Assembly: GCA_019637975.1 (NCBI GenBank)
Contig: JAHBUR010000004.1
Span: 32,209-96,208 of the forward strand
DNA length: 64,000 nucleotides
Origin: Bacteroidota bacterium
GTDB lineage: Bacteria; Bacteroidota; Ignavibacteria; UBA10030; UBA6906
Direction: 5' to 3'
Positions within the stretch are counted from its first letter, which is position 1; the number at the start of each line of letters is the position of its first letter. This document shows positions 1,661 to 24,654 of the stretch, in pieces. Made by a program: the position numbers and the translations under genes. The notes under the pieces were generated by a model that had not been told where the DNA came from, searched no databases, and was given only the letters and a program-made list of their open reading frames with translations.

Positions 1661-2660
1661 TTGGGGGCGATCCATACGGGGAAATTCCAAAGTGGTTGAT
1701 CGTTGATGGTTCAGAGTTGATGGGGTGATGACCGGGGATGGAAGACGGAAAAAGGGGTGACGCTTGAGGGCAGACGTCGGACGTCAGCGTCAAGGGGCTT
1801 GGCGTGACTTTGGTGTGAAACTGATCGTCTATCGAAATATCAATGAGGCGGCGGCCAAAGGCATGCCAAGCCTATAACATGCTGAGGGCCGCAAGTACGC
1901 CGAGCGAAGTGATGAGGGAGGCGTTCTTGCTCATGGCTTCTTGTGGGAAAGGCGGCAGTATGTGACCCGCAGTGAATCGATTCATTTTCAACAACTCACT
2001 CGCGGGCACTTTCTGCCGCCGTGCGGCTGGCCTCGTGCCAGCAACGTTGTGGCGGTTCATTCAGTGCAGTTTGTGTGACGGGAATGAGACGAAACTATGT
2101 TGCAACAGGGTCTTTGGAGAAGCGGCAGGATATTTAGGGTTGAAGCTATATCCTTATAGATGATCTTGAGATGGCAACACGCTGCCGCTGTGCACGGGGA
2201 TATATGCGCACGCACGCGCAAAGACCTTTTTCATGGCTTAGCAATGTTTGCACACTTACTATGTATTATGGAGTAGGCTGTGCATCAATGACTCAGTGGG
2301 CCCCTTCCCGTTGCAGGTAACTTTGTGGCGGCGTGCCATTCTTAACTTCAATGTTTCGGAGCACGGCAAGACGACACAAATTTGCTCCAGAGGAGCTTTG
2401 GGAGAGGATGCTTGGTGCAACCGATGTCGTCGTCTTTTTGTCAGCGAATTGTGACAGTCTATCTGTGGTTGGATTACTATCAATGAGCTCGACGAAGTGT
2501 AGCGGAATACGAAGGCAGGTGTTCTTGTAGAAGGTTTGGGAAGAGGCGGCTTTATCCGTCTTGAGTTTTATGAGCAAACGGGATTGCTCAACTCTGAGTC
2601 GACCAATTCCAATGAGACGGCCCTTGATCTGTGTCAAGCCAAGGTGAGGCAGCAGAATCT

Positions 2661-4109
2661 TTACTTACGTACCTCCTTGTTCTTTGCATTCAAGGCTACG
2701 GAGAGCTTCTCAGCCAGAGTATATCCAGTTTTCGGAATCTTGTGGCGGTCGCGGTGATTTTTGCATGCTCTTGCGTGCAGACGGTAAAACAAACAAGACT
2801 CACCGGTACAAGTGTCATTCGGGCAATAGTCGATAGGCATTTTCTCTAGCCATTCAATTTCGGTTAGAGCGATGCCAAGTAAGTTGTTCATTTGAATCTT
2901 GCTTGGAATAAAATCCTTCGCTTTGGGTGACCCACAAATTAAGAGACTGTCGGAGGGATGAAGAAACCACTTATGCATCATGCCCGGCAACCTTAGTCGT
3001 TGATAATCGGGGGTGGTCTTTTCTTCGATACATTCAGCTATGCGAACTTTTTCAGCCAGGCTCGGCATCGAGAACTTGTTAAGCGGTCCCCTACGGTTTA
3101 ACAAAAGAGAAGTTGCACCGGAGAAACCATCGCGGTAGATAATTAGATCCGCATGCACACGAAATCGTGCTGCTTTGATGACCATCCCATTTGTGGACAC
3201 TACACTAGCGATGCTTACATTCCTGACCTTGTGAACGATTCCTCTATTGTCAAATTCTTCCAAGGCATTTGCCCACTGTTTTTCTCTTTCCCAAATTGCA
3301 TCCAACCAAAAATTAAATGTTCCAGTAATGCGCTCTTGATTGCCTTCTTCGCGAAACATCAGACCAGCAAGCAACGCGGGCAAAGAGACCATTTCATCTA
3401 AGGGATCTGGAGAGAAAGCAATTTCTGGATTCTCAATCAGTCGACGGTGCAATTCACGAATGGTAACCAAGGTTGGTTCTGCACTTCCAACCACTGAACC
3501 TCGGTCAAGCAGATATTTCCCTATCAATTCCTTCAGCAACAATCTGCTGTCTGGAGCATTCTGTGAATCTGTTTTTTCTTTTCTCTCTAAATACAATGTG
3601 ATAACCTCCAATACGTTCATACCCTCATGTAAGAGGCGGTACGAATCGGAACCGTAGAGCAATTGGAGACCACTGAGAATAGTCGGCAGTGTTCCTAAAT
3701 GGTGGACATAATCTCTAGAGCGGATGCTTTGCCCGGTGGTATCCTGCAGGCGTGTATACTGAATTAGACTTCGCCAGGCTGGATCGTCGCTTATGCCAAC
3801 CATCTCCGCTGTGAGATCTGCCGCGCAGCGATCTTGTTTTTCTTTAGTGACTTGATTCTCAACGGGATGCGAGTCCAGCCGCCCGCCACCAACGTCGACT
3901 GCAAGTATGCCTTCTTTTTCCAATTCCTCAGACGACTTTCCTTCAGGGAGCTTTCCGGCAGGGCAGAACGCAATATCTGCCGTTCGCGCACCCGGAAACT
4001 GCGCTTCGCCAAAACGGCGCAGGACAAGTGTGGAGAGCATAGCATCAAGATCCGGGGACTCATGAGTGAGAATACACCTTATGGGAATCGGTCTCATTTG
4101 TTTGCCCAT
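2661..4109 (-). CDS. DHH-superfamily-like phosphoesterase (482 aa) with an uncharacterised C-terminal half
   Basis: N-terminal motifs are consistent with DHH motifs I-III: THESPDLDAMLS (HxxPDxD..S), ILAVDVGGG and RLDSH (degenerate DHH). The start codon abuts the stop of the giant ORF, with 1 nt between them. Confidence 0.45.
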   Translation of the reverse strand: MGKQMRPIPIRCILTHESPDLDAMLSTLVLRRFGEAQFPGARTADIAFCPAGKLPEGKSSEELEKEGILAVDVGGGRLDSHPVENQVTKEKQDRCAADLTAEMVGISDDPAWRSLIQYTRLQDTTGQSIRSRDYVHHLGTLPTILSGLQLLYGSDSYRLLHEGMNVLEVITLYLERKEKTDSQNAPDSRLLLKELIGKYLLDRGSVVGSAEPTLVTIRELHRRLIENPEIAFSPDPLDEMVSLPALLAGLMFREEGNQERITGTFNFWLDAIWEREKQWANALEEFDNRGIVHKVRNVSIASVVSTNGMVIKAARFRVHADLIIYRDGFSGATSLLLNRRGPLNKFSMPSLAEKVRIAECIEEKTTPDYQRLRLPGMMHKWFLHPSDSLLICGSPKAKDFIPSKIQMNNLLGIALTEIEWLEKMPIDYCPNDTCTGESCLFYRLHARACKNHRDRHKIPKTGYTLAEKLSVALNAKNKEVRK

Positions 4110-4110
4110 T

Positions 4111-7100
4111 TCATCTTATCAAGTATTGGTGGACGGATATCCCTGACTTGAGGAATAAATCTCGGCTATTGAGTGTGTCCGGCGGCTCCATGCGACCAGT
4201 GCGATTGTCTAGGAAATTCTGCAAAAGGAGAGTTAGGAATGACGGTGATGACCGCCGAGCCTCTAACAAGTAGCTTAGTGAACCGTAATCTCTTAGCGCG
4301 ACTGCTAGCCCTGTTGAAAAAATGATCGAATTTGAGTCGGATTCACTTTCGGGATGATAAGAATTGCAATATTTCTTTAAGAGGTCGACGAGGTTGTCAA
4401 ACCAGGCTTCCTCACTGGGCCTGCCAGTAGGTCGTTCGTGCAACCGCCCAGCCAGAAAACTCATGCACAGCCTTAGCACTTCGATACGCCGTCGCCAAGC
4501 TCGGTCTTCTTCCACAGATCCGAGATGATAGCCTGCTTCCTCAAGATGTTCTTGGACCTTTTCTTCGTTTTGCGAAACAAAATAGAGACACGCAAGCAGA
4601 TAATGGAGCCGACCGACTTTCAATGTTGGTTTTGTTTTGACTTCACGAATCCAGTTTTCAATCGTATCGACGGTGCTGCCTAATTCTCCTGGGATGTATT
4701 GCTCAAGGGGATTTGTTGCTCTTCCCATTGTAGCAACAGCGTGATTCTCCATATCTTGTTTCCAATCCGGCCAATACGGCTGCAAGAACAATTCGAAGTG
4801 ACTACCAAGGCGTTGGACAACCTCCTCAACAAGTTGAGTATAATCCATATCGGCGCCGCTTCGTCTGGCGGCAATGATGCGCCCGAGACCCGCATTCAGT
4901 GATTCTGGAATTCTCTCGTGTGTGTAGTTGACCATAGCATAGATCACTTTCCAATCTATGGAGTGTTCTTGATGGGATCGGTGAATATCTGCATACTCCT
5001 CAACGGACAAAAAATACTCTATTGCAGCAAGAAGCACCAGTGGATCCTGATCCTCACGATAAAGCTGCGGGTTCATTATGATTCTTGCTGTTCCCGACAG
5101 GAATGACGACCAATCATCCCGTGAAGCTTCCGGGATGACAGCAAACAGATGCAACTGTCGCAAGGGTGCAGCCAAGAAACGCGCTACAGCTGTCGCTGTT
5201 GTGCTATTAATTGGAACAAAGAGTTCTGACAGTTGGCTTCCAAAGGCCAGCCAGTCGTATTCTGAGTGCTTCGATTGTTTGCGACGATCCCAGAGATTTG
5301 TCCAAACCAATTCGGCCCATGCCGGAAAAAATTTACAGCATGTGTCCCAAGCCACTTGTTTACGATGAATCATTGAACTTTGACTGCGTACTGATAAGTG
5401 CCTCTTCTTCCCGATCATGAACTGGCTCAGACGTACCTCATCTCCAGTCTCTAAGGGTTCGTGAAATTCACTCTTGACGTAGTTCATGGCAACCATACCA
5501 TACGATTGCTCGTAACGCACTAATAAACAGTCTGGATGTTTAGAAACAATTTTGGCCACGAAGGTTTCGTTTCGTCCAGCATCGTCAAATGTTGGTACAC
5601 GGCTCAAGAGGATCCTTCCTTCTGAGGGACTCCATTCACGAAGAACGCAGCTAATGGCCATATTCTTCTGCAGCTTGCCTTTTCCGAAATAGCCATAAAT
5701 CAGCTCGTCGTACAGAATGAAAGTGACAAATCCAGGAAATTGTATGAATGCACCTTCTGCACAGGCTCGCTTGACAATTCCAGGTAGTAGAGATGCCACA
5801 CCAAAAGTTTGAACTCTTTCACTCAAATATTGATCGTAGCTTACTTCAATCGTGCGATCAGCGGCAGTGATCAGCACAGGGATTTCAAGGTTCTTCAAGT
5901 TGTCAAGGTTAATGTTGTTTCTCGAGAGACACTTGGCTTCTTGATTTGGCAAGAAGCCTGTCAAAGCGGCGTCTTCTTCGAAAACCACGCGATAACCATT
6001 TTCAAGAATCTCCTCTATTCGCACTCTTGCCAACCTACCAGTTCCCCGAACCGCGTCTTCCTTGACCTCATGCTGCAACCCGACCTCCACCCGAGTGATT
6101 TGAAAGACCCCATGTTCGCTATAGCGCAAGCCTTCATGCGCAACCATCAATCGCCCATGTAAGCGATCCCCGGGCTTAAGCCAAAGAAAGCTGCTGCGTT
6201 GTTCCGCAGGAAGCGCGCTGAGTTGAAGCAAAAGTCGTTCTTCTATCTTCTTATGGTTTGTGTAAAACACAGAGAAATAGTTTCTACTAATTCCCCACTT
6301 TTCGAAAACGAAAGAAGCGTCTTTAATATAGCCCTCACGATTAGGGTGAGGCGGTTGAGCGCTCTGTAAGAAGATCTTCCAGAGCCAGCCATCACGAAGG
6401 AACATTTCAATTTCCAACCGAAAGGAAATATTGTCGAATCTTACGACATGCGCGATGATGCGATCGCCACGGCGCAGATCTTTGATTCTCTGCGGACGGT
6501 CGAAGCGCGATAGCGGAATGCGATAGTTCATTCCTGGGACACGTTCAACAAGGATAGGTTCGTCAGACTTCGCAGTGTCTTGAAGCATCGTGAACACCAG
6601 ACGTTTTTCGTTGGGGTTTTCTAAAAAGAACTGATCCAATTCCCCCACTTCCCGCGGAGTACTTCCGGTCAGAGAAAGCTTGGAGGAATTATCGTGCTTA
6701 ACCAAAATTGCGCTATGCCATTCTCCGACATTAAAATTGAGGGTGCCGGGATGCATAACCGGATGCATCGGGCGAGTCAAGCCGAAGAGTGACAACGATG
6801 AGTTGGAAGTAAGATCAGGGAACTTGAGATTTCCTACAGGTCCGTTTGCGGGTCGAACTCGCCAACCGGTGTTGTTACCTTCAGGAACGAGAAGCTGGAT
6901 CTCAATCTCGTATTTTTGGTGCTTATCACTATCCCAAATGCGGAAAACGAAGGCTTCCTGCTCTTTATCAAAGTGTCCGAAAACTACGGAAAAAATATCC
7001 TGATCGGATACTTTTTCCGTCAAGATCTGAGCATCCTCGAGTGCTAGGAAAGCCTGAACATGCTGCAATTGGATGTGCCTTTTCGCAGCTTCTCCCAAGA

Positions 7101-10100
7101 ACCTAATCCGCCATTTTTCTCTCTCATTTGAGAGATGGCAACGAAAGACATGGTTTCTTAAGCTATTGAGTGTTTCGCTTAGTGAACGAACGGGCAGAGC
7201 TCGAAGGACCAGCTTGTTGTTATCAGAGAACGCAAAACTGAACATTCCGTCAATGAATTTCCAATTGAAGTATGATCGACGTTGACCCGGAGTGATTAGT
7301 ATATCATCGACCGAAACCCTGCATATGACCAGAGTAGCTGTCTCAAAAATATACGAGCGATTGTCCTCTGAAATCCTGATGAGGCATGCTTCGCCCTTGT
7401 CAATACCAAACTCCGCATTGAGCTTTCCGTTGCGATTGAGGTTCTGAGGAATGCCCTGACAGAGACTGAGTTTCACGAGTTTCTTCTCTGTATCGACACC
7501 CATGACACGAAAGCCACGCACGAGATTCCGATTAGCCCGGGATTGATAGTACTGGTAATCGCGTCGTGATACAACATGTGAGATATCTCTATAGGGCACC
7601 AAGAAAGTAATATCGCTATCGTAATTCCAAGACTTAATCCGAAGCCCGTCTTTTCCAGCAGACTGTACTCTCCCCCAGACGTTGAAAAACTCATTCTTCG
7701 TCTTCTCTTTTAGAATCGAGTCTATTCCAGGGACGGTGGTGCTATCAGCAACTGGAACGAGATCTCCATGGAGCTTTGGAATACCGGATGAACAACTCAT
7801 CCAAATTCGCTCGGCTCGGACATCAATCCGCGCCCGCGTTCGATAGTGTGAACCGCCGCCAACTAGTCTTCCGTTCATAGATCGGATCCCTGGAGGCGTG
7901 ACTCTCACCAGCCCGTCTTCTGATATCACAAGTCCTTTCAGTGGCTCTTCTTGTGCAAGGATGCTCCTAATGCCGCCACTTTGGACTTGGAGATTATGCA
8001 CAAGAAGAACGCGGTTCAGCTCGCGACCAGGTTTAAGACTCACCGCATCGCCTGCATAAAAATGAGTACGCCCGAAATCCTCGAAGCATTGACGCGCTAT
8101 CCGCAAGCATATGCCGGGTTTTCGTTCGATCCAAACGTATCGGTCATATCCCTTTTCCTGATAACCAATGTAGATGCCGTTTGCCGGCAGCTTCAGCCGC
8201 TCAACTGACTGTATAGTTTCTTCGGGACTATCGAGAAGTAGAGAAAACTCCATTTCTCCTCTTTTTTCATTTTTCCCAACGTAACGAGCCTCCACGACAG
8301 TATCGCACGGAAAATCCTGAATCGTGATTTTCGGATTGTACGCAAGTTGGTCTTCATTAATTACGAAACTTTCGCGCGTCGTCCAATGCGATAGATTCAA
8401 CCAATTTCTCCAGTCATCTCTAGACGAACCGATGACTTTGAGATGGTACCAATCACCCACTTCGAATTTACGGAATTCATCTATGAGGGGGATAACCAGA
8501 GGGACACTCTCTCGGTAGCCTATGATCTTGGCTCGAAGCTTCAGAACCTCATCAATCTCCCCAAGATGCAACAGCATCTCGGAGTCGACCTTATCCCACT
8601 CTAAGATTGCAGGAACTGGCCGTTCCTCAAATTGAGGCTCGATGATTTCTACTGTTTGTGGTTTATCGGACCAAGGTTTTGAAGGCTGAGCAATAATGGT
8701 GACGCGAGCTTCAAGTTCGAACTTCCCATGCAGATCATAGCGATAAGGTGCTATCCGTCTAAGCTTCAACACACACTCACCCTGCTGCTGCCAAGGGCGA
8801 TTGTCCCTTTGGTTCACTTGAGGCAAGAGCCATTGGGCCTCGAACGTCTCGCCACATTTTGGGGGATAGGCTGTGAGCAGCGGATGATAGTTGAATTCAT
8901 CCTTGTCCACCATTCTCTCCGCGCTAAGCTTACAAAGAGTTCCAGGACGTACAAAATGGTCGGGATAGTCTGATTCAGGTAAGGAAGTATGTACTTCAAA
9001 AAGTAGATCATTCTTGTCGAGATTAACAAAGGTCAGTTTGAAAGGAGCCGTTCCAAAAAACATGGCCAATTTTTCAGCGCCCCAAACAGGTTTGCGCCGC
9101 TTGAAAGAGAAGATAACCTTTGCACCTTCGGCAGGTCGAACAAGGCAAATCTTGATCCGCTCTTGTCGTTCCTCCAGGAGTTTAATTACTTCAAGCGTAT
9201 TCTGCAAATTTGCCCAAGAAACCTCTTCCCTTGAAACCTCGAATGGCAAATGTCCACACAACACTCGAACATTGCCTTCCAGATTGATTGCATCAAGAGC
9301 GACTTCCATTTCGAGGTTATCCCTCACGTTGAGCAAAACTTCTTTTAGCGAAGCTATGAGCGCTCTCTTTGAGAGAATCAGGTCACCCGCCTGTTCGCGA
9401 CCAGCGACCATGAACAAATGAAGTTGGCCTAGATTACCTAGCTTTTCCGTTTGTGTTTCACCGATCTCAGGCTCCGACCAGATCCCTTTGGGATAGCTTG
9501 CGCCTAAGTCGACAATGAACTTCTCGCCAGAGTTCGTTTCGCACAACCGTTCGATGCTTCCCAGCACACAATCCCCAACACAAATTTGTTTGTTGCTTTG
9601 AGGTTCTGTGTTAAGATGTAAGTTCTTGATTTTGTCAGCTATGGCTGAGGGGAAATCGGCTCTATTCGTCACTACACGCCACACATTCCGCAAACCCATG
9701 ACCGGAGATGCAAAAACCACATTCCGATGGTGATGCAAACTTTCTTGAGTGAGTAGTTTAACAGTGCCACCTTCAGCAGTGCCTACCAAGGTTTCCTCGA
9801 AATCAAGCTGGGCTAGGGCACTTGCGAGTCTCGAACTGACTGCCTCGGACTCGCCAGTGCGATCCGATTGCCCTTCTGGGGGAAATGGCAAATGATGTTC
9901 ATTGGCGAATTGGGACGCACGTAGCAAGCTCAGCCACGCGAACTTGGACAGTTCCGCATCTGTAAGCTCTGTTTCGCCACGCAACTCTTCATATAGATAA
10001 TACGCAGCTTCTCCGCTCAGGTGCTGACGCACATATTTGTTGAGTCCCCCATAGAGAAATCCGTAATGAGAGTTGGTACGCTCATCTTGGAGCATGCACC

Positions 10101-12132
10101 GCAACAAATCTAATAAATTTTGGATCTCCCGAACCGGCAACTTCATGAGTACTGGTACGCTTTCGATCCAGCGATATTCCTTGATGTCACTAATCAGATC
10201 GAGGGGGGGGTGCCTATCTTCCAGAGCAAAAGGACAATTTTGATAAGGCATCTTGGGGTGGTTTGTCGCTAACTCAAGCCAAAGCGTCAGTTTTCGCGCG
10301 CGCACCGTCTCTTCATCAAATGCCTTCTTCAAAACCATCGCGTCCTTGATATGGCGGAGTTGCGAATCCTCATTCCTGAGTACAATCAATTCGTCGTCAG
10401 TCGGAATAAACCGGCTCAGATTCTCAGAGAGATCAAGCTTTTCTATCAGGAACGAGAATTGCACGAACCGCTTGATCATCGTTGCTCGATCCGGTGCTTG
10501 ACGTAATGCGTCTCGTAAAATGCATCTGAGTTCTTCAATTAATTCTGGCATTAAAACTTGCCGCTCGTCCAAAAGTTCGTCTTCTGGAGTGAGAAGCATA
10601 TTCCATAGATGCAAAAAATCCTCCATTTTGAAGCCAGACACGGAACTCTTGTAGCATGCTATGCTTTTTCGTAATATTGGATTGCGATTCCACACTTCGC
10701 CCTTTCCAATGTAGAGCGTCACCAAGTTGTTGGCGACATACCTGCTGTTGTACCTAACGAGATCATTCCACTTCTTCGGGTTGAGACTGCGGCATTTCCC
10801 CATGACTTGCATAACATGGTTTTCGACAGCTTTTCGCGAGCGTCCCAAGGTCAAGAGATGCTGAACGATTTCTTGACACTGCTCAGATTTGAACTGATCG
10901 AAGTTACGCACTAAGGCAAAGTGCCACATCTGCAATGTGTAGCTGACGGATTCGCATTGTAACCCCGCATCGAAAAACTTCCTTAGCTCAAACAACGAAT
11001 CGCAAGCACCGATTTCTCCAAGTGCTTTGATCGCGTTCTGGCGGTTGGCGTCCTTACATTGGTCAGGCTTGTTTCTGTAGTCATTCTGCTGCCGAATGAC
11101 ACTCTCCAGCGCATGGATCAGTCTGATCCTGTTTTCCCGAGTCTTTGCAAATGCCTTCTCAAGATTCTCACCATCAGCAACGGACCTTATCTTCCATTTC
11201 TCGAGCAAAGCCTCCCATTGTTCCGACGACCAATAGCCATCATGACATCTTTTGGATTGTTCGACCAAGCCGTCGCTCATTCTTTCATCATGGAGCATAT
11301 TGCCGATGATGGAGCGGGCAGATTCATACAAGGGTGTCGCCCATAACAGCCTAGCGCTACGTATTCCAGATTCAATCACCTGATAGTAAGCGTGAGGATC
11401 GTTACTGTACTCGAAATCTTTGTACGGAGGCGGTTGGATTAGCTCCAGCGCGACGTCAAAAGCCGAAGTCGTTTCGTCCTTTGGCAGACCCGTTCTTCCG
11501 AAGAAATCCAGAATTCTCCGAAGAACGAAAGGGTCTAAGTCCATTTTGAGAAGACTGTGTAATTGTTCGCCCAACTTAGCATTAGGGAATTCGCTCTGGA
11601 AATCTTTTTCGATGAAATCTACAAAGCGCGATCTGCTCGTATCTCCAACATCGGCCGGTAAGCTGAAAATCCCAGACTCGGTCCCGAGCCATAGGAGATC
11701 AAGGCCGTGCCGGTGATTCGGCTGAAAATAGCTGGGTGCCTCCCGGGAGCTTATCCCTTTCCTAGGTGGTTCTCCTTGCTCCAGCAGATCTAGTCCCTTG
11801 CGTATAATTTTTTTCAAGTTCTGCGGTAGAGGGTTGGCATAGAAAGTTTCGAGATCGACACCGACATATTCCCAACGTTCCGGAAATCTCTCACGCATAA
11901 TTTGGGCAGCCCATTTCCTTATTTGCTCCTCATGAACAAATGACCCAGTGACAAGCCCTAAAAAGTATTCGCGTTCATCGGGGTTTGTCATCTGAGCCAA
12001 GCAATCTTCCATCTTCTGCATCCCGCGCAGTTGCACTGCAGACCAGGGGGAAGTCAAATACTCTTTGACGGACTTGATTTTATCAATTAGGCTAAGAGAC
12101 TCGAATCTCGCTAGGCGCTTGTTCTTTGCCAT
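4111..12132 (-). CDS. giant 2673-aa protein of unknown function; alpha-helical N-terminal third, then repeated beta-rich (S1/OB- or SH3-like) modules
   Basis: Uninterrupted 8-kb ORF. No Walker, helicase or obvious nuclease motifs. Recurrent G-D-R-[IL]...V...F modules, for example GDRIIAHVVRFDNISFRLEIEM and GDRLHGRLMVAHEGLRYSEHGVFQITRV. Overlaps the upstream STAND gene by 22 nt. Confidence 0.85.
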   Translation of the reverse strand: MAKNKRLARFESLSLIDKIKSVKEYLTSPWSAVQLRGMQKMEDCLAQMTNPDEREYFLGLVTGSFVHEEQIRKWAAQIMRERFPERWEYVGVDLETFYANPLPQNLKKIIRKGLDLLEQGEPPRKGISSREAPSYFQPNHRHGLDLLWLGTESGIFSLPADVGDTSRSRFVDFIEKDFQSEFPNAKLGEQLHSLLKMDLDPFVLRRILDFFGRTGLPKDETTSAFDVALELIQPPPYKDFEYSNDPHAYYQVIESGIRSARLLWATPLYESARSIIGNMLHDERMSDGLVEQSKRCHDGYWSSEQWEALLEKWKIRSVADGENLEKAFAKTRENRIRLIHALESVIRQQNDYRNKPDQCKDANRQNAIKALGEIGACDSLFELRKFFDAGLQCESVSYTLQMWHFALVRNFDQFKSEQCQEIVQHLLTLGRSRKAVENHVMQVMGKCRSLNPKKWNDLVRYNSRYVANNLVTLYIGKGEVWNRNPILRKSIACYKSSVSGFKMEDFLHLWNMLLTPEDELLDERQVLMPELIEELRCILRDALRQAPDRATMIKRFVQFSFLIEKLDLSENLSRFIPTDDELIVLRNEDSQLRHIKDAMVLKKAFDEETVRARKLTLWLELATNHPKMPYQNCPFALEDRHPPLDLISDIKEYRWIESVPVLMKLPVREIQNLLDLLRCMLQDERTNSHYGFLYGGLNKYVRQHLSGEAAYYLYEELRGETELTDAELSKFAWLSLLRASQFANEHHLPFPPEGQSDRTGESEAVSSRLASALAQLDFEETLVGTAEGGTVKLLTQESLHHHRNVVFASPVMGLRNVWRVVTNRADFPSAIADKIKNLHLNTEPQSNKQICVGDCVLGSIERLCETNSGEKFIVDLGASYPKGIWSEPEIGETQTEKLGNLGQLHLFMVAGREQAGDLILSKRALIASLKEVLLNVRDNLEMEVALDAINLEGNVRVLCGHLPFEVSREEVSWANLQNTLEVIKLLEERQERIKICLVRPAEGAKVIFSFKRRKPVWGAEKLAMFFGTAPFKLTFVNLDKNDLLFEVHTSLPESDYPDHFVRPGTLCKLSAERMVDKDEFNYHPLLTAYPPKCGETFEAQWLLPQVNQRDNRPWQQQGECVLKLRRIAPYRYDLHGKFELEARVTIIAQPSKPWSDKPQTVEIIEPQFEERPVPAILEWDKVDSEMLLHLGEIDEVLKLRAKIIGYRESVPLVIPLIDEFRKFEVGDWYHLKVIGSSRDDWRNWLNLSHWTTRESFVINEDQLAYNPKITIQDFPCDTVVEARYVGKNEKRGEMEFSLLLDSPEETIQSVERLKLPANGIYIGYQEKGYDRYVWIERKPGICLRIARQCFEDFGRTHFYAGDAVSLKPGRELNRVLLVHNLQVQSGGIRSILAQEEPLKGLVISEDGLVRVTPPGIRSMNGRLVGGGSHYRTRARIDVRAERIWMSCSSGIPKLHGDLVPVADSTTVPGIDSILKEKTKNEFFNVWGRVQSAGKDGLRIKSWNYDSDITFLVPYRDISHVVSRRDYQYYQSRANRNLVRGFRVMGVDTEKKLVKLSLCQGIPQNLNRNGKLNAEFGIDKGEACLIRISEDNRSYIFETATLVICRVSVDDILITPGQRRSYFNWKFIDGMFSFAFSDNNKLVLRALPVRSLSETLNSLRNHVFRCHLSNEREKWRIRFLGEAAKRHIQLQHVQAFLALEDAQILTEKVSDQDIFSVVFGHFDKEQEAFVFRIWDSDKHQKYEIEIQLLVPEGNNTGWRVRPANGPVGNLKFPDLTSNSSLSLFGLTRPMHPVMHPGTLNFNVGEWHSAILVKHDNSSKLSLTGSTPREVGELDQFFLENPNEKRLVFTMLQDTAKSDEPILVERVPGMNYRIPLSRFDRPQRIKDLRRGDRIIAHVVRFDNISFRLEIEMFLRDGWLWKIFLQSAQPPHPNREGYIKDASFVFEKWGISRNYFSVFYTNHKKIEERLLLQLSALPAEQRSSFLWLKPGDRLHGRLMVAHEGLRYSEHGVFQITRVEVGLQHEVKEDAVRGTGRLARVRIEEILENGYRVVFEEDAALTGFLPNQEAKCLSRNNINLDNLKNLEIPVLITAADRTIEVSYDQYLSERVQTFGVASLLPGIVKRACAEGAFIQFPGFVTFILYDELIYGYFGKGKLQKNMAISCVLREWSPSEGRILLSRVPTFDDAGRNETFVAKIVSKHPDCLLVRYEQSYGMVAMNYVKSEFHEPLETGDEVRLSQFMIGKKRHLSVRSQSSMIHRKQVAWDTCCKFFPAWAELVWTNLWDRRKQSKHSEYDWLAFGSQLSELFVPINSTTATAVARFLAAPLRQLHLFAVIPEASRDDWSSFLSGTARIIMNPQLYREDQDPLVLLAAIEYFLSVEEYADIHRSHQEHSIDWKVIYAMVNYTHERIPESLNAGLGRIIAARRSGADMDYTQLVEEVVQRLGSHFELFLQPYWPDWKQDMENHAVATMGRATNPLEQYIPGELGSTVDTIENWIREVKTKPTLKVGRLHYLLACLYFVSQNEEKVQEHLEEAGYHLGSVEEDRAWRRRIEVLRLCMSFLAGRLHERPTGRPSEEAWFDNLVDLLKKYCNSYHPESESDSNSIIFSTGLAVALRDYGSLSYLLEARRSSPSFLTLLLQNFLDNRTGRMEPPDTLNSRDLFLKSGISVHQYLIR

Positions 12133-15068
12133 GTGTTAACCTCTGCATTCTGCGTATGTTGTAACTTATCCATGAATGATCTGAATGATGTGCGTTGTTG
12201 CTCTGTAGGCAGCTTCGTCAGAATCCTCTCAAGTACCTTGATGTGAGCGGAAACTCGCGCGACAGCTTTAGCTTCCTCAAGGTTAATTCTTGTACGAGAC
12301 TCAAGGAAAAAGTTTGCCACTTTGTCCCTGTGCGTTAGCGAAACTTCCGGCATCTTTGCAAGGCTTTTCAAAAGTTGGATGGTCGAAAGTCTGCTGAGTA
12401 TGGCTAATTCTTTCTCATTTTCCCCTCCTTGGTGATAGCGTGTCAACAACGCAATAGCCGCACGTAAGCGCAGCAGAGGAACTTTTCCAGTAGCGACAAT
12501 GTCTTCCAGTTTCGAAATTTCACCACAGGCAATAAGATGCTGGAGTATTCTATCCTTTACAAGTGGAGCTACTTCCTTATCGTAGAAGGTCGTAAGCCAA
12601 CTAGCTGCTTCAGTAAGACTCGTGGATTGCATTAAGTCAAGTGCAACCTCTTTCAAATTGTTGTCCCGACGATCTTCCCCCAGTTCGCACAGTTTTTGAA
12701 TGAAGGTCAGTGATGCAAATTGGCTCCAGCCCCGCAAAGCATAAAGTAGAGCAATTGTCCTCTGCGGATCTCGCACGTAAAGTCTCTCGGGCGCCTCCAG
12801 AATATCATTCATCCAAGTTTGAATGATGTCCCGTTGATTAGGTTCCAGACAAAAGAAGGAAAACGCGGAAAGAATTCGATTGATAGTGGCCGTGTCAAGA
12901 GAATTTCGATATTCGAAGCACGCCTTGACGGCTTGCTCTGCTGCATTTTCGATCGGATATTGTTCGATGATGCTTAACCACTCCTCCCAAAGTCGTGGCG
13001 AATTCCCATAGAGATCGGAACGGAGTTTTTCGGCGCCGTTAGAATGAAAGAGTTCACGCAATGATTGATGACGTCGTATCAAGTGATCAGAAAGCAGGTC
13101 GCACAAAGCAGGCGGTATCTCCTGATTCCCAAGAGCGAGATCGTCAAGCGTCATTTCACGTTCGCGTGTACTTTCTTCCCGTAACTCAGGATAGGTCTTC
13201 ATCATATGGATGAGTTGGTCCCATGTCTGCTGATTCGCGTTGGATTGGGCTGAAACTCTCCATAAGAACTTGATCGCTATGCTGGCTTGATCTGAAGAGC
13301 GGATGTTTCTGAAGCGTTCGAAGCATTTTGAGACGACCAGATCCCAATCACGGCTATCCGATAGCCTTTCCAAAAAGAGTATTGCCAGCGACCAGAAATT
13401 GGGATTCTCCGACAACGCAGCGACCCCACCCGATATTTGGGCACGATTACCAGACCAAATGGTCAAGGCTGCCTCCACCACCCAGTAATTGAGCATGAAC
13501 GGAAAGGAAATGGTGACCGTTGAGAAATCTCTTTGCAAAATGTCCTTCAAGACAACAGGGCCCAATTCTGGGAACGGGAATTCCCTGCGTTCGGCCTCAA
13601 AGCTCTCTGCGTCGATTTTTCCGTTCCAATCCTTCCATGTTTCCGGAGGGGAATTCAACCACTGTCTGGCGAAGGGTCTGATTATCAGCAAATCGACTTC
13701 TTTTATCTTTTCGTTACGTCGAAGACCAGATGGCAACACTTGTTTGAGAAAGCCATGGCTGAGTTCACGCAAGTAGTCAATATCGGACCCACCTTCAGCA
13801 GCACTTTGGTAATAGTTCAGCAACAGGTTCAAACCGAACAAACTATCCTTAGGTAGTGGAGATGAAGGCGACACCCAGAAATTATACAAGCTACCCCACT
13901 TTTCTCTAAGGAGACTGCGCTGAGCACGCAAATATTGCCACACTTCCGGAATCGATGGGGGACATATCGACATTTCCCGCCAGTTCTTGAGTTCGCCTCC
14001 GTGTTCTCTAAAATCTTTGCTGCGCAGACTGAGCCAAACGCGATTTGCCCGTCCCTCACGTTCATTTTCATCACGCAACCGTCTTAGCCAAGCCGGCAAT
14101 AGCCTGTATTTTTCTTCGGCAGGATCAATCTCATCCAAATACAACCACAGGCTACCCTTATTCCAGCAATACTGGAGAGTTTCAAACTCTGGCCACAATG
14201 CCGATCTAAGAATCGTGAATGGAGGTCCATCGTTCGTGTCAAAGTCCTTGATCGCAGCAAAGCTCACTGGCAAGGGCCAATGTGTCGGATTTTGCTGTAG
14301 GTACAAAAGTTCCCGTACTACATGAATCATGAGTGACGTTTTCCCACTGCCGACGTCGCCAGTAATAATTGCATAAGGACTGTCGCATGCCACTTCCAAG
14401 GGTGACAGCCTCTGCTCGGTGAGATGCAGAGGACAATAAGGCTGCCCTGGAGTCTCCAGGATCGGATCCTGTTCCCATGCTCTCGGCCCTCGGTTCCAGT
14501 ACTTCCTTATTGCGTCTCGAATTTCGCCACTGGTTGGATCTTGCCGTTGTTTATTATCTAATTTGCCTCCGTATTCATGCGCAAATATGTCCTTGATTCG
14601 AGAGAATTTGGGATAGTCTGTGTTATAGAGATTGACTATTTTGTGCAATAGATCCTTGGCCGAGAGAATATGCTTTTTAGGATCGAACCATTGGTATTTG
14701 CTCTTTTTCATCCTTGGGCGATCAAGTTTGAGAATAAGAAACCGAAGTCCGTTGGTGAAAGTTTTGTCATGCTGATACTTGACAAAAGCCTCTAGCGTGT
14801 CTCTTATTTTTGTTCCATCAGTTCTCGATGTTATTTGAAAAGCAACCTTACCTTGTGTATTATCGCCCAAGTCAATAGCCGGAAAATTTGCTTGTTTCTG
14901 GTTGAGGTTTTCCAGTCTCAGATCAAAGATCGTATTTAAGACATCTTTGCATAGATCTTCAGAAAGTTTGTTGATATCGAAAAAGTTTAAGGCATTCTGC
15001 GAATCAATTTCGCTGAGCCATTCCATCACATATTTCGATATGGTTTGTATTTCGGTTTGCTTATTCAT
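12111..15068 (-). CDS. STAND/NACHT-type NTPase (985 aa) with an uncharacterised ~230-aa N-terminal domain and a C-terminal helical-repeat region
   Basis: Walker A ITGDVGSGKTSLM at about residue 240; Walker B LWLYLDEIDP; a long C-terminal alpha-repeat (HEAT/TPR-like) region. This is the architecture of antiviral STAND (Avs-like) proteins. Confidence 0.7.
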   Translation of the reverse strand: MNKQTEIQTISKYVMEWLSEIDSQNALNFFDINKLSEDLCKDVLNTIFDLRLENLNQKQANFPAIDLGDNTQGKVAFQITSRTDGTKIRDTLEAFVKYQHDKTFTNGLRFLILKLDRPRMKKSKYQWFDPKKHILSAKDLLHKIVNLYNTDYPKFSRIKDIFAHEYGGKLDNKQRQDPTSGEIRDAIRKYWNRGPRAWEQDPILETPGQPYCPLHLTEQRLSPLEVACDSPYAIITGDVGSGKTSLMIHVVRELLYLQQNPTHWPLPVSFAAIKDFDTNDGPPFTILRSALWPEFETLQYCWNKGSLWLYLDEIDPAEEKYRLLPAWLRRLRDENEREGRANRVWLSLRSKDFREHGGELKNWREMSICPPSIPEVWQYLRAQRSLLREKWGSLYNFWVSPSSPLPKDSLFGLNLLLNYYQSAAEGGSDIDYLRELSHGFLKQVLPSGLRRNEKIKEVDLLIIRPFARQWLNSPPETWKDWNGKIDAESFEAERREFPFPELGPVVLKDILQRDFSTVTISFPFMLNYWVVEAALTIWSGNRAQISGGVAALSENPNFWSLAILFLERLSDSRDWDLVVSKCFERFRNIRSSDQASIAIKFLWRVSAQSNANQQTWDQLIHMMKTYPELREESTREREMTLDDLALGNQEIPPALCDLLSDHLIRRHQSLRELFHSNGAEKLRSDLYGNSPRLWEEWLSIIEQYPIENAAEQAVKACFEYRNSLDTATINRILSAFSFFCLEPNQRDIIQTWMNDILEAPERLYVRDPQRTIALLYALRGWSQFASLTFIQKLCELGEDRRDNNLKEVALDLMQSTSLTEAASWLTTFYDKEVAPLVKDRILQHLIACGEISKLEDIVATGKVPLLRLRAAIALLTRYHQGGENEKELAILSRLSTIQLLKSLAKMPEVSLTHRDKVANFFLESRTRINLEEAKAVARVSAHIKVLERILTKLPTEQQRTSFRSFMDKLQHTQNAEVNTWQRTSA

Positions 15069-15259
15069 GCAAATGACAGATTTGGAGCGAACTCAATAGT
15101 TGGTCATTGTGTCAACCAATCGTTTGACGAGTCATCTTCTGACTGGCCCCATTGGATCATCCGTTTGTCCACATGCCTCTCCCACTCACCAGATTTCAAC
15201 GATACTGTTCTCCAAAAAAAACGGCAACCCATTTTTGCGATCGGCCAGTTATTCACGCT

Positions 15260-16501
15260 TCAAAGTTCAGCGCTGACTGACTTTCCCAACTCTAAGATGG
15301 CGTGTGCCAAAACAAATCTCCCTGCTTGAGTATGTCCGCGCGTTGACATTATTTCGGCAAGCCCGAGATGCGCCGACGCGACAGAAACGCGCAAGCGATA
15401 TTCCCAGTTATCCCAATCTCCTTCTCTTTGCTCTTCAATCTTGTCTAATGTGTACTGCTCGACCCTTTTTCTTCTGAGCTCCGCAGCCTTGGGAATATCA
15501 CTAAGATGAATATCCAGGACCCACCTGCTTTTTCTGGATGGCGGGATCCATCTGCTGTGGCAGGACTTGGGATTACGCGCGACCCATCCGACAGGTTGCA
15601 TCCAATGTAACAGTTTTCCAAAATCATAGATTGGGTCGGACATTCCGATAAGAGGATTTGGATCTATCAGGAAGCATGAGAATCCATGACCGCGTTTGCG
15701 GAACAGGATATTCCCCAAGTGGGGATCCCCGTGCACAAGATTCATTCTCAGTTTGGGAAGATCCGCCTGTAATCGTGCCTTGACAGTCTTAAGTGTATTG
15801 TTCAGTGGAGGCACTTTCTTACCATTCACATAACCAGGCTCAGACATGATTGAAGAAAGCGCTTCGTCTGCCTTTAATATTGCACGCAGTTTAGAGTCAA
15901 TACGTTTGGTGTAAGGATCAACGCTGGTGCCTATCCGGGACTTAATTCTGACAGTGGTCTTGTGAACATTCTTGATGGCGCTAATGGCCTTGTCTACTAG
16001 ACGGTTCAAAACAGCTACCTCCGTTGCTTCATTGTAGAGGTACTTGGAAAATGACTTGAACTTTCTCATTTGTTCCATCAATAAAACAAATCGAACATCA
16101 TCTAACACATCAATGTGCAGCACGTCGGGGAATGTCCTTGGATATTGGCTGTTGACCAACTCTATGAGAGCCTTATGCAATTTCAATTCATCAGTCCCGA
16201 GTTTTACTACCGTATGCACATCAGTTCGCACCGTTCCAACAAAGTCGGCTTTGAATCCTTCGCCGAGTTGCTCTATCTTTCCTATTCTCACGCAGCTTCG
16301 CATGAATTGTTCGGAGAATCCTAATTGTAACACCCGCCTGACTATCGGAACAAAGTCTATTGGGTTGTGTTGAAAATCAGGGGCTTGGATTGAAGATGAC
16401 AGGTTTTGGAAGCCACGAAGTTTTCTGAGGGCTATTTTGTTGTTGAGCGAAGTGAGGTTTTTTTCAGGTGCGGTCAAGAAGCATTCCCCTAAGTGAGCCA
16501 C
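15260..16501 (-). CDS. APH/choline-kinase-fold phosphotransferase (413 aa)
   Basis: Brenner catalytic motif LVHGDPHLGNILF (HGDxxxxN) followed by FLIDPNP (IDxx metal-binding motif), as in aminoglycoside phosphotransferase-like kinases. Confidence 0.6.
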   Translation of the reverse strand: MAHLGECFLTAPEKNLTSLNNKIALRKLRGFQNLSSSIQAPDFQHNPIDFVPIVRRVLQLGFSEQFMRSCVRIGKIEQLGEGFKADFVGTVRTDVHTVVKLGTDELKLHKALIELVNSQYPRTFPDVLHIDVLDDVRFVLLMEQMRKFKSFSKYLYNEATEVAVLNRLVDKAISAIKNVHKTTVRIKSRIGTSVDPYTKRIDSKLRAILKADEALSSIMSEPGYVNGKKVPPLNNTLKTVKARLQADLPKLRMNLVHGDPHLGNILFRKRGHGFSCFLIDPNPLIGMSDPIYDFGKLLHWMQPVGWVARNPKSCHSRWIPPSRKSRWVLDIHLSDIPKAAELRRKRVEQYTLDKIEEQREGDWDNWEYRLRVSVASAHLGLAEIMSTRGHTQAGRFVLAHAILELGKSVSAEL

Positions 16502-17872: not shown

Positions 17873-18704
17873 GTGGAAGAGATTGTGGAGGCACTTCACG
17901 TATCCGAACGACGAGCGTGTCGCGTGTTAGAGCAGCCGCGAACAACACAACGTCATCAGGCGTCACGCCGAAGCGATGAGGAACCGTTGCGGAAACGGAT
18001 TGTTGCCTTGGCGTGTCTGTACGGACGCTATGGGTATCGGCGAGTAACGGTGTTACTGAGGGACGAAGGCTGGCGAGTGAATCACAAGCGCGTTGAACGC
18101 CTATGGCGCCAGGAAGGCTTAAAAGTGCCGCAACGACAAGCCCAAACGGAGACGGTTGTGGTTCAATGATGGGTCATGCATACGGTTACGTCCGTTGTAT
18201 CGGAACCACGTGTGGAGCTACGATTTTGTTGCAGATCGTACGAGTGATGGCAAGCCGATACGGATATTGAACATTCTAGATGAGTATTCACGCGAGTGTT
18301 TGAAGATTCGCATCGACAGACAGATGAAAGCAGTAGATGTGATTTATGAATTGTCGGAACTGTTTGTTGAACGCGGAGTACCGGATTACCTCCGCTCTGA
18401 TAACGGGTCGGAATTTGCAGCGGCGATAGTCCGTGATTGGCTGAAACGACTCGGCGTCAAGACACTCTTTATCGAACCAGGGAGTCCATGGGAGAACGGC
18501 TACATCGAATCATTCAACGGAAAAATGAGAGATGAATTATTGAATGGAGAAATCTCTGATACTATTCTGGAGGCACGGGTGATCACAGAACGATGGAGGA
18601 AGGCATACAACACGGTTCGACCACACAGTTCATTGGGATACCGTCCACCGGCGCCAGAAGTACACCAATATCTTAGCTTGCCAGTGGCTGAGCAAATTAA
18701 CTAA
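17873..18704 (+). pseudogene. IS3-family transposase OrfB (DDE integrase core) disrupted by a frameshift near 18156-18169
   Basis: Two frames, 17873..18169 and 18156..18704, together encode a typical OrfB (YRNHVWSYDFV...DNGSEF...PWENGYIESFNGKMRDE). The expected ...QRQAKRRRLWFNDGS junction is broken. Confidence 0.7.
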
Positions 18705-19521: not shown

Positions 19522-19634
19522 GTTGTTGACTCCCAAGGTAATATGAGACTTTCGACGTGAGGGGGATTATCGCAATCATATGTTTGCAGTTTTCACCGAA
19601 TTCTTTCCCTTGATTAGCAGGTTCTCTTCAAACG

Positions 19635-19880
19635 TCATCTTGACTTACGTGAAAACACCATCAGCAGGATAATCAGTTGTGACAGAACTTTCAAAGCGTC
19701 CTTGGAAAGAATCGCAAACACCGCAAATGAAGAAGTTAGGGCGAGCAGGAACAAGATAGCGAATGACCATACTGATAATCCGAAGATCTCCCTGATTTGC
19801 AGCAGGACAAAGGTGATGAAAACGACAAATGAGACAATCATTTTCTTGATTAGCGAGCCAATGTCCTTGCATGATATCAC
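19635..19880 (-). CDS. small membrane protein, hypothetical
   Basis: 81 aa with two hydrophobic helices. Weak evidence. Confidence 0.3.
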   Translation of the reverse strand: MISCKDIGSLIKKMIVSFVVFITFVLLQIREIFGLSVWSFAILFLLALTSSFAVFAILSKDALKVLSQLIILLMVFSRKSR

Positions 19881-19887
19881 GTACGCG

Positions 19888-20880: not shown

Positions 20881-21349
20881 GATTCACATCTCCAAGTATT
20901 AGGGTGCATTCTCTTATTCTGATACGCCCATACTTCCCTGGAACAACTGATATTGATAGCCTTTGTCCGTCTGACTGATCTGCAAGGCACTCCACATAGT
21001 ACGTCTTACCTGCCTCTGCCTTGAAGACAAACTTGGCTGGTCCTCCAATAGCCTGGATCCCCGTAACAAACAGCTTGAAACGGACGGCAGAAGTAATTTC
21101 GACTTTCCCTTCCTCAATGACCACCGGAAAGTATCCCATCCTTTCCAGAATACCGATTTCTGCACCATTAACCTTCAGGTCGAACTCGGTGCTTTTGCCA
21201 TCGTCAGGACGATAGAGATATGCAATGCTGCGACCATGTGGGATGCCGGCCACCTCCTTGAAAAGCGGTCCACGACTTGAAGAGCAGCCGACACTTGATA
21301 AGGTAATGGCAAAGAGCAACCCCAAATGGAACGTGTCAATTTGTCTCAA
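20873..21349 (-). CDS. lipoprotein, hypothetical
   Basis: Signal peptide with the lipobox SSVGCSS; 158 aa. Confidence 0.55.
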   Translation of the reverse strand: MRQIDTFHLGLLFAITLSSVGCSSSRGPLFKEVAGIPHGRSIAYLYRPDDGKSTEFDLKVNGAEIGILERMGYFPVVIEEGKVEITSAVRFKLFVTGIQAIGGPAKFVFKAEAGKTYYVECLADQSDGQRLSISVVPGKYGRIRIRECTLILGDVNHE

Positions 21350-21415
21350 AAGAAGTTTCCTCCCAGCAAGAGTATAGGGCAGTTACACTGACGACCCAGC
21401 ACATCTCAACTGCTT

Positions 21416-21961: not shown

Positions 21962-22223
21962 GTTAACCTCACTGATGATATTGAATGTACAGTTGATTCT
22001 GCTGTTGTGCGAATAGAACGACTATGATCATCATTACAGCGCCAGATGGAATCTCCTGCAACGGAATTTGAATATTCAGATCATCTCTTCGATTGTCTCA
22101 TTCTTCAAGCTTGACAGTAGCGAAGATCGAACTGAAAGGACGGAAGCAAGATTGGACAGTGTGCTTGTGGTTTGGCACCGACCACTCGTTCACTTGGTAT
22201 TCGTTCCGGCTTGCCTTGTACGC

Positions 22224-22256
22224 AGAAAAAAAGCCAGACTTTTTGAGTCTGGCTTC
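22224..22256 (-). terminator. intrinsic terminator downstream of the 22284..24638 gene
   Basis: Minus sense: aagccagactcaaaaagtctggctt hairpin followed by ttttttt. Confidence 0.6.
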
Positions 22257-22283
22257 CTTGACAACGGATGCACAATGGTAACG

Positions 22284-24638: not shown

Positions 24639-24654
24639 TCACGGCAAAGTTGAA

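Follow-up and report, generated by a model that had tools for sequence, protein, structure and literature searches.

A giant protein with an S1/OB-type barrel array, encoded beside STAND-like NTPases, as a possible sensor or scaffold of a rare bacterial conflict system

In the stretch of Bacteroidota DNA that we analysed (64,000 nucleotides, hereafter the window), one gene encodes a giant protein that is always found beside an NLR-like ATPase with interchangeable domains. This constant pairing makes an immune sensor or scaffold the most likely role of the giant. We favour, with a probability of roughly 0.45, the reading that three genes make up a rare conflict or anti-phage system of NLR/Avs-like (STAND NTPase) type, in which the giant has no enzymatic role and serves as sensor or scaffold.

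Results

The giant gene is intact and conserved along its length

The gene and the two best conserved stretches of its product lie at the following positions of the window.

4111..12132, minus strand: giant gene, 2673 aa, stop codon at 4111-4113 (ORF list, translation, full-length homologs)
11677..11730, minus strand: most conserved block of the family, Q..RHGLDLL, aa 135-152 (invariant columns, 7-sequence alignment)
11500..11538, minus strand: second conserved block, DPxVxRRI..F, aa 199-211 (7-sequence alignment)

The reading frame starts with ATG and is uninterrupted in the window copy, which rules out a broken ORF here. Six other loci code for full-length relatives of 2652-2807 aa that share 29-57% identity, evenly along the whole length. 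The uninterrupted 8-kb frame pointed out in the preliminary description is a real gene, with full-length homologs of similar size. The 7-sequence alignment contains 318 invariant columns and indicates purifying selection along all 2673 aa. The most conserved block falls in a loop that AF2 models with low confidence. A single in-frame TAG in the relative at locus L006 is either a nonsense mutation or a read error.

The giant matched no family in Pfam, NCBIfam or PADLOC, and PDB sequences gave no match to either the single protein (phmmer) or its profile. No Walker A, HExxH, CxxC, HxH or DxD motif is conserved in the alignment, in line with the earlier statement that the protein carries no enzymatic motif. 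The claimed lack of a signal peptide and of transmembrane segments also held, as the N-terminus is hydrophilic and the maximum Kyte-Doolittle 19-residue mean is 1.48; the giant is a cytoplasmic protein. A surface adhesin or secreted protein, which the preliminary description had named as the outcome to guard against, is ruled out by these properties together with the S1 and HEAT folds described below, and structure comparisons returned no Ig, cadherin or beta-helix type matches. We found no homology between the giant and either of its partner proteins.

Helical ends flank an array of S1/OB-type barrels

9793..12132, minus strand: HEAT/ARM-like alpha-solenoid, all-helical, aa 1-780 (AF2, structure comparison)
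5413..9792, minus strand: array of roughly 14-17 S1/OB-type small beta-barrels, aa ~781-2240 (AF2, structure comparison)
9355..9576, minus strand: S1-like module GDCVLG..FIVDLG..GIW..LILS, aa 853-926 (hhalign 31.5 over 67 columns)
7456..7695, minus strand: S1-like module, aa 1480-1559 (hhalign 34.9 over 70 columns)
6433..6576, minus strand: module with the motif GDRIIA, aa 1853-1900 (weakly similar to aa 1330-1373; S1 profile score 27.8)
5845..6045, minus strand: best S1-like module, aa 2030-2096 (hhalign 37.2 over 64 columns; AF2 pLDDT ~77-81)
5602..5802, minus strand: S1-like module, aa 2111-2177 (hhalign 23.5 over 67 columns)
4114..5412, minus strand: C-terminal helical domain, aa ~2241-2673 (AF2 helices from about aa 2255; modelled part aa 2255-2385)

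AF2 predicts only helices for aa 1-780 (pLDDT 70-90 for aa 190-750), that is, for 29% of the giant, and so reproduces the helical N-terminal third that had been described. The paired helices form a solenoid that superposes on HEAT/ARM proteins, and we assign it to that fold, a protein binder that typically serves as a docking scaffold. The last ~430 aa, which the preliminary description had passed over, are helical again, and this domain is kept in all homologs of the giant.

Predicted strands lie almost exclusively across aa ~782-2235. The AF2 model of this middle region is poor (mean pLDDT 48, MSA of 6), so the number of modules and their boundaries are approximate. When the beta modules were compared with the PDB by Foldseek, the top match was ribosomal protein bS1 (E=1.2e-12, 573 columns), to which the array is only about 14% identical. 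The modules superpose on S1 domains as five-stranded OB barrels with a helix between strands 3 and 4, an order (b1-b2-b3-a-b4-b5) that the module at aa 853-926 shows at a pLDDT of ~70-78. A bS1-repeat profile, whose reference sequence was checked against the PDB, gave 8 hhalign matches, all within the beta region (scores 20-37, probabilities 0.4-43%), with reversed and shuffled controls scoring <=17; Pfam S1 (PF00575) found no match in the giant at E<=0.1. Two independent structure comparisons thus show that the barrels, as modelled, have the S1/OB fold, and the controlled profile comparison points the same way. The preliminary description had proposed S1/OB, SH3 or KOW folds, and only the first of these was recovered. 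Of the distant similarities that it had suggested looking for, those to RNase II, RNase E and S1 arrays were found by structure and not by sequence HMMs or PDB sequence searches.

Self-BLASTP detected no internal repeat at E<=10, and profile self-comparison with hhalign gave one weak pair only, aa 1330-1373 against aa 1857-1901, which includes the motif GD(R/A)(I/V) and has a probability of 92% with 5 sequences and 43% with 7. The modules therefore recur as a fold and not as detectable sequence repeats: the recurring beta modules noted earlier stand as structure (AF2, Foldseek), and a repeat protein in the sequence sense is ruled out by self-BLASTP and by hhalign comparisons of chunk against chunk and module against whole.

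The structural matches of the array are mostly RNA-binding S1 domains and are dominated by nuclease-capping S1/cold-shock OB domains (Rrp4/Rrp40/Csl4, PNPase, RNase II/R, RNase E); the OB rings of proteasomal ATPases and the HIN domains of p204 and p202 (E=3e-5) are also among them. Since the array is near-neutral (pI 6.1-8.8) and has few invariant basic residues, nucleic-acid binding is not evident from its sequence, and charge and pI proved uninformative as a proxy for such binding. OB folds can bind proteins or sugars too.

These properties bear on an alternative in which barrels and solenoids bind proteins, so that the giant, with the STAND NTPase as its guard, would be a bait resembling translation or RNA-metabolism factors such as bS1, or would itself be the receptor to which phage proteins bind. 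The protein-binding HEAT/ARM fold, the lack of strong positive charge in the array and the proteasomal OB rings among its matches would all suit such a role. Characterised Avs/bNACHT STANDs sense proteins (PMC13581612). However, a protein without HMMER-level similarity to bS1 would make a poor decoy for it, 15+ tandem S1 barrels exceed the needs of any known protein-recognition module, and the matches are overwhelmingly to domains that bind RNA. We consider protein sensing unlikely.

An NTPase with exchangeable effector domains precedes the giant

12111..15068, minus strand: upstream partner, 985 aa, with SMEK_N nuclease-like domain, P-loop (STAND-like) NTPase and conserved helical C-terminal region
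14637..15041, minus strand: SMEK_N effector domain, aa 10-144 of the STAND protein (Pfam)
13983..14384, minus strand: P-loop NTPase core, aa ~229-362 of the STAND protein (weak NACHT, NPHP3_N and nSTAND3 matches; alignment)

The stop codon end of the NTPase gene overlaps the start of the giant by 22 nt, and a ~1000-aa P-loop (STAND-like) gene precedes the giant at every locus with a full-length relative. The proposed link to a STAND partner is thereby borne out, and the conserved size and neighbourhood in homologs that the preliminary description had suggested looking for were found.

The N-terminal domain of the window NTPase was recognised by SMEK_N models of Pfam (2e-33) and NCBIfam (2e-24) and by the PADLOC model Aga_REase (1.6e-34). 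PMC10810196 names SMEK among the nuclease domains found in short pAgo systems. Beyond this SMEK/REase domain PADLOC gave a weak mad8 P-loop match, and none of its Avs or NLR models matched. The Walker A (GSGKTSLM) and Walker B (LWLYLDEIDP) motifs are conserved, and a PDB profile search returned generic P-loops only. Across the NTPase family all matches to Pfam STAND models fell below the cut-off (NACHT, 0.0009-0.004, with 0.004 in the window NTPase; nSTAND3, 7e-5; NPHP3_N, 0.003).

Between loci the NTPase core can be aligned at 30-46% identity, and the N-terminal domain alone is exchanged: SMEK_N (2e-33), PNP_UDP_1 (2.4e-16), Trypsin_2 (7.6e-13), CHAT (3.7e-31) or TIR_2 (3.8e-34). Known defence systems use domains of these types, CHAT being caspase-like, and PNP-like ATP nucleosidases have been described as immune effectors (bioRxiv 10.1101/2023.01.24.525353). 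With this exchange of effectors, the tripartite partner has the architecture of STAND defence NTPases. Because it is the STAND protein that carries the exchangeable effectors, the giant, for which the preliminary description had suggested an effector or scaffold role, appears unlikely to be the effector.

A DHH-like gene usually follows the giant

2661..4109, minus strand: putative phosphoesterase (DHH-like) encoded downstream, 482 aa, or more probably 478 aa if translation starts at Met5 (junction sequence)

A third gene, absent from the preliminary description, begins 1 nt past the stop codon of the giant. Eight residues are invariant across 21 members of its family (H16, D20, D22, D72, D79, H81, D123 and H136), and the first six fit DHH motifs I-III, with D-x-H replacing DHH. 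No GGGH motif was seen, and the protein carries a C-terminal Cys4/His cluster. Pfam DHH matched 12 of the 21 members weakly, all below the 28.1-bit cut-off (best E 0.0032), while a PDB profile search found no relative and PADLOC gave 0 matches.

Only one variant lacks a ~478-aa DHH-like protein after the giant: the gene is present at L001, L002, L003-5, L006 and L015 and absent beside the giant in the TIR variant L007-9. Relatives stand alone elsewhere, including distant ones in L010-L014 and L017 and one at L023 that is 59% identical over the first ~150 aa and has no giant gene in the 3.7 kb upstream. The DHH-like gene is therefore not an obligatory, cassette-specific component.

These data also allow a reading in which the giant and its DHH-like neighbour are the executive arm, a machine comparable to an exosome or degradosome whose S1 array would thread ssRNA or ssDNA into a RecJ/NrnA/MYG1-type DHH nuclease under regulation by the STAND protein. 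The nuclease-capping domains that lead the structural matches, the translational coupling of the two genes, the invariant metal-ligand-like residues and the persistence of the DHH-like gene irrespective of NTPase effector type would suit such a machine. Yet the TIR variant does without the adjacent gene, its relatives are solitary in unrelated contexts, the DHH assignment lies below threshold, and the NTPase already bears a dedicated, variable effector. We regard a degradation machine as improbable.

The cassette is rare and patchily distributed

Gene order in the cassette is variable effector, P-loop NTPase and helical region in one protein, then the giant, then usually the DHH-like protein. 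An APH-like kinase gene (15260-16501) is not conserved upstream at other loci, so we excluded it from the system. Genes of defence or mobile type surround some relatives: L003 has an integrase, a TIR gene and a gene for SIR2 (1.7e-35) nearby, and L002 a FokI-like REase. Transposases were found close to both the window copy and L008; the immediate neighbours of the cassette in the window gave no defence-family matches.

We searched 1.84 billion representative proteins exhaustively with a profile of the N-terminal 1188 positions and obtained 9 matches, all of them family members or fragments. The 185,579 GTDB species genomes contained no member, and JGI metagenomes contained two contigs with the family, both already known. 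In all, the giant family numbers roughly 7-10 members in about 15 billion proteins.

The system might not be immune at all and could represent a complex for RNA metabolism or regulation that is specific to its lineage, or else an element that is decaying or selfish and has no current function. PADLOC's blank result for the giant and the DHH-like protein, the non-defence neighbours in the window and the in-frame TAG in the L006 relative are compatible with this. Against it, the swapping of nuclease, NADase-type TIR, protease and phosphorylase effectors is characteristic of conflict systems, the distribution is very sparse and patchy, and selection appears to act on the entire giant. This makes a non-immune function very unlikely in our estimation.

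Discussion

Building on the reading of the giant as sensor or scaffold, we infer nucleic-acid binding and the following signalling logic. The long S1 array would rely on avidity to bind extended single strands of nucleic acid, probably RNA or ssDNA of an invader, and the helical ends of the giant would dock onto the helical C-terminal region that is conserved in the NTPase. Ligand binding may then license NTP-dependent assembly of the NTPase, which would switch on the N-terminal effector and cause the infected cell to stop growing or die. Trimming or removal of the bound nucleic acid, as ligand processing or as a reset of the system, could be the part of the DHH-like protein. In its boldest form, which we hold to be doubtful, this would be a new class of bacterial immune receptor: a stand-alone ~300-kDa protein that has the longest tandem S1/OB array known, measures or captures long single-stranded nucleic acid of the invader and signals to a separate NLR-like NTPase with plug-in effectors, with a DHH nuclease as ligand processor, a prokaryotic counterpart of the AIM2/HIN-to-inflammasome route.

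Known STAND/NLR-like defences mostly sense phage proteins via their own C-terminal repeats; should the giant prove to sense nucleic acid, the ligands of STAND immunity would come to include nucleic acids detected in trans, and no larger natural S1 array would be known. No curated family exists for any of the three components (giant, NTPase clade, DHH-like family), and the system is thus invisible to current defence finders. In the literature we found nothing that describes a STAND protein together with a giant S1 array. The rarity of the family limits its ecological weight, yet it is a clean, testable oddity.

Like Avs/bNACHT proteins, the cassette NTPase has a swappable N-terminal effector, followed by a P-loop NTPase in the centre and a helical region at the C-terminus, and its distribution is patchy and mobile. 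Unlike them, mostly single proteins that sense with their own C-terminus, it comes with a partner of 2650-2800 aa that is obligatory, and in most cases with a third gene, and it reaches NACHT and nSTAND3 below threshold only. NTP-dependent ternary conflict and CoCoNuT systems are also multi-gene and NTPase-centred with variable effectors, and in some of them RNA binding is predicted for S1-like/cold-shock OB domains and for HEAT repeats (PMC7159879; PMC11090510). Their OB domains, however, are single and fused to effectors or McrB/helicase components, no giant S1 array with a STAND protein is described among them, and the full text of PMC7159879 contains none of the terms 'giant', 'SMEK' and 'DHH'.

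The downstream partner resembles DHH/DHHA1 phosphoesterases (RecJ, NrnA, GdpP, MYG1) in its N-terminal 'THxxPDxDA ... DVGGGRxDxHP' with invariant His and Asp, and differs from them in its D-x-H, the GGGH not seen and the extra C-terminal cluster. Compared with bS1 and other multi-S1 proteins (SP_0946, Rrp5, Tex, PNPase, RNase E/R caps), the giant stands apart: bS1 has 6 Pfam-recognised S1 domains, whereas the giant has ~15 barrels that no HMM recognises, flanks them with helical domains of 780 and 430 aa in a STAND operon, and has no sequence homolog among these proteins at any detectable level. HIN-200/AIM2-like receptors share no homology with the giant, and HIN binds dsDNA and signals via PYD, whereas the giant has S1-type folds and a P-loop NTPase partner. 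The resemblance is one of logic: in both, tandem OB folds would serve as cytosolic nucleic-acid receptors that feed an oligomerising platform for death or inflammation.

The giant gene lies inside a tight operon

The giant gene is the middle member of a tight operon, between a gene for a STAND-like P-loop protein (the NTPase) and one for a DHH-like protein (the partner):

12111-15068, minus strand: NTPase, 985 aa; stop codon overlaps the giant ATG by 22 nt
4111..12132, minus strand: giant, 2673 aa
2661-4109, minus strand: partner, ~478 aa; ATG 1 nt past the giant TGA

The ORF list and translation show the giant reading frame running uninterrupted from its ATG, as the preliminary description had it, and with its full-length relatives it is a real gene. 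An identical protein is present in a collection of 5.8 billion protein clusters, where we found four full-length relatives (2652-2704 aa) and one truncated one (1957 aa); a seventh, more distant member (2807 aa, 29% identity over ~2300 aa) was reached via a neighbour gene. The comparison of size and neighbourhood that the preliminary description had proposed gave full-length relatives of 2652-2807 aa, all keeping the adjacent NTPase. Identity to the window protein is even across all 100-aa bins, and 318 columns of the seven-sequence alignment are invariant (10-13% per third).

The family is rare. An exhaustive HMMER search of 1.84 billion representatives with a profile of aa 1-1185 returned nine proteins at E<=1e-3, all family members or their fragments. 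Scanning 185,579 GTDB species genomes by pattern and tblastn turned up no member, and 241 million JGI metagenome records yielded nothing beyond the two contigs already known. In one JGI contig (L006, 10241-10243), a single in-frame TAG splits the giant gene into 1957 + 710 aa (NSN*DCFEVHY, against NSNRDGFEVHY in a relative of 55% identity); the frame is unchanged beyond it, and the TAG reflects either a nonsense mutation or an error in the reads.

The giant combines helical regions with an S1-type array

We modelled the giant with AF2 as aa 1-1185 and aa 1186-2385, each from an alignment of only six sequences. In the first model (mean pLDDT 64; 70-90 at aa 190-750), aa 1-780 are helices only, matching the helical N-terminal third described previously, and contain the two most conserved blocks, Q..RHGLDLL (aa 137-147) and DPxVxRRI..F (aa 200-211). 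The second (mean pLDDT 48; best modules 70-81) is nearly all beta to ~aa 2235 and helical after; both this C-terminal helical domain and the third gene of the operon had been overlooked. The absence of enzymatic motifs, signal peptide and transmembrane segments noted earlier held up. The giant matches no Pfam, NCBIfam or PADLOC family at E<=0.1 and no PDB sequence, whether searched as single sequence or profile; the seven-sequence alignment lacks Walker A, HExxH, CxxC, conserved HxH and conserved DxD; and the chain has no hydrophobic segment (19-residue Kyte-Doolittle means reach at most 1.48), its N-terminus not being signal-like.

Against the PDB, Foldseek placed ribosomal protein bS1 first for the middle model (E=1.2e-12, 573 columns), followed by the S1 multidomain protein SP_0946, HIN domains, RNase II/R, Unr cold-shock domains and aIF2alpha. 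Low model confidence notwithstanding, the predicted fold is coherent between two independent structure comparisons. Roughly 14-17 barrels can be counted as strand groups in the models from aa ~781 to ~2240, several in the canonical b1-b2-b3-helix-b4-b5 order. A profile built from the six bS1 repeats of E. coli (the reference was confirmed against the PDB, 1204 bits, full length) aligned in hhalign with eight giant modules, all inside aa 849-2169, with scores of 20-37 over nearly the whole domain, reproducing the S1 pattern G..V.G.V..i...G.fV.l....G.lP ... Gd.v.v.V...d....i.LS. Reversed and column-shuffled controls scored <=17 over ~20 columns; probabilities were below 50%, making this cross-check supportive, not decisive. 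The recurring beta modules reported earlier thus stand as an S1-type fold but not as sequence repeats: self-BLASTP finds none, and profile self-comparison yields one weak pair (aa 1330-1373 and 1857-1901). The array is S1 by fold and by no sequence model, and the whole protein comprises a HEAT/ARM region, the S1 array and a helical region, without catalytic signatures.

The giant might instead be a protein-sensing or decoy scaffold, which we consider unlikely. With a pI of 6.1-8.8 the array is near-neutral, and few of its invariant residues are basic. This counts against nucleic-acid binding but does not discriminate, because bS1 itself is acidic.

Effectors are swapped on a conserved NTPase

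The NTPase begins with a SMEK domain (Pfam 2e-33, NCBIfam 2e-24, PADLOC Argonaute-associated REase 1.6e-34), followed by a P-loop (GSGKTSLM ... LWLYLDEIDP), whose NACHT, NPHP3_N and nSTAND3 matches are all sub-threshold, and by a ~600-aa helical region. The window's gene order is kept at every locus with a full-length giant relative, L007-L009 being without the third gene. Between loci the NTPase core is 30-46% identical, and the N-terminal domain alone is exchanged.

N-terminal domains of cassette NTPases (locus, domain, Pfam E)
Window, SMEK_N, 2e-33
L001 and L006, PNP_UDP_1, 2.4e-16
L002, Trypsin_2, 7.6e-13
L003-L005, CHAT, 3.7e-31
L007-L009 and L015, TIR_2, 3.8e-34

SMEK is cited as a nuclease domain in short pAgo systems (PMC10810196), and PNP-type ATP nucleosidases have been described as immune effectors (bioRxiv 10.1101/2023.01.24.525353). 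Such exchange of effectors, with sensor and NTPase kept constant, is the hallmark of conflict or defence systems. The fold matches and conserved NTPase linkage make the earlier idea of an S1/OB scaffold for a STAND partner largely right, the alternative role of effector being unlikely for the giant.

A non-immune role of the cassette is very improbable given this swapping, even though the immediate neighbours in the window match no defence family. The CHAT-variant cassette of L003 has beside it (19622-28115) a DNA_pol_B and DUF8156 pair, a defence-like SIR2 gene (PADLOC 1.7e-35), an integrase of phage type and a TIR/FGE-sulfatase gene, surroundings that look like a mobile defence island; a FokI-like REase neighbours L002.

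Two further genes lie upstream of the window cassette:

15260-16501, minus strand: 413-aa APH-like phosphotransferase/kinase (PF01636, 5e-9), directly upstream on the cassette strand; adjacency not conserved at other loci
17873-18704, plus strand: IS3-type transposase (integrase core; rve 2e-28, rve_3 9e-19), ~3 kb upstream, with a short overlapping ORF upstream of it

GC is 0.46-0.48 over the cassette region (window 2600-16000), ~0.50 on average in the window and 0.53 in its first 2 kb, a weak difference that fits horizontal acquisition.

The DHH-like partner also occurs outside the cassette

The partner is 55-66% identical among cassettes, and its wider family comprises 27 clusters. Across 21 diverse members, H16, D20, D22, D72, G74-76, R77, D79, H81, D123 and H136 are invariant (H137 nearly), as are H384, S386, G393, S394 and K396. 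At the sequence level, the N-terminal pattern THxxPDxDA ... DVGGGRxDxHP resembles DHH motifs I-III; Pfam DHH matches are weak in 12 of the 21 and all below threshold (best E 0.0032), and a profile search found no PDB relative. Cassette-linked members and some others carry a C-terminal Cys4/His cluster. The protein deposited at NCBI (KF749_02880, 459 aa) begins 23 codons past the ORF start, removing the invariant THxxPDxDA motif; its start is probably wrong, because homologs begin at the Met5 position.

This likeness would suit a reading, improbable in our view, in which the giant and the DHH-like protein together make up an exosome-like machine for degradation; the exchanged effector domains are already on the NTPase.

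The partner is not obligatory. L007-L009 are a two-gene variant (TIR-NTPase and 2652-aa giant); inspected by eye, it has a fragment of an IS66-like transposase on its upstream side, and downstream Flp pilin/TadE-like genes take the place of the DHH-like gene. Distant partner relatives stand alone in unrelated neighbourhoods. In a Saprospiraceae MAG (L023, 1716-4193), a match of 59% identity to the partner's first ~150 aa, where the contig ends, is preceded by an unrelated 606-aa ORF, and the 3.7 kb upstream contain no giant gene, so even close relatives exist outside the cassette. At L017 (10001-14880), after a 477-aa homolog (46% identity) come a 128-aa ORF and an 884-aa protein that carries a CHAT domain (1.9e-7) at its C-terminus. 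A ThsB-like TIR gene is nearby and a giant gene is absent; the locus may represent a reduced system, or an unrelated one, employing the same DHH-like protein.

A proposed mechanism and comparison with known systems

Beyond the gene linkage, effector swapping and domain architecture, which are shown, we infer a mechanism to which, as a whole, we give a probability of about 0.45. The giant would be a sensor or scaffold: avidity would let its S1 array bind long single-stranded nucleic acid, and its two helical ends would engage the C-terminal helical region conserved in the NTPase. Once ligand is bound, NTP-dependent assembly would follow and the plug-in effector would be activated, and the putative DHH-like enzyme would process or clear the ligand.

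The comparative-genomics surveys of NTPase conflict and CoCoNuT systems describe HEAT repeats and single S1, CSD or OB domains but no giant S1-array partner of a STAND protein (PMC7159879, PMC11090510), and our further literature searches found no such description. At the system level the cassette resembles Avs/bNACHT-type STAND defence, but it differs in that its NTPase matches the family models only below threshold, it corresponds to no PADLOC system and it consists of several genes. That it constitutes a distinct class of nucleic-acid-sensing receptor is a tentative and somewhat doubtful proposal.
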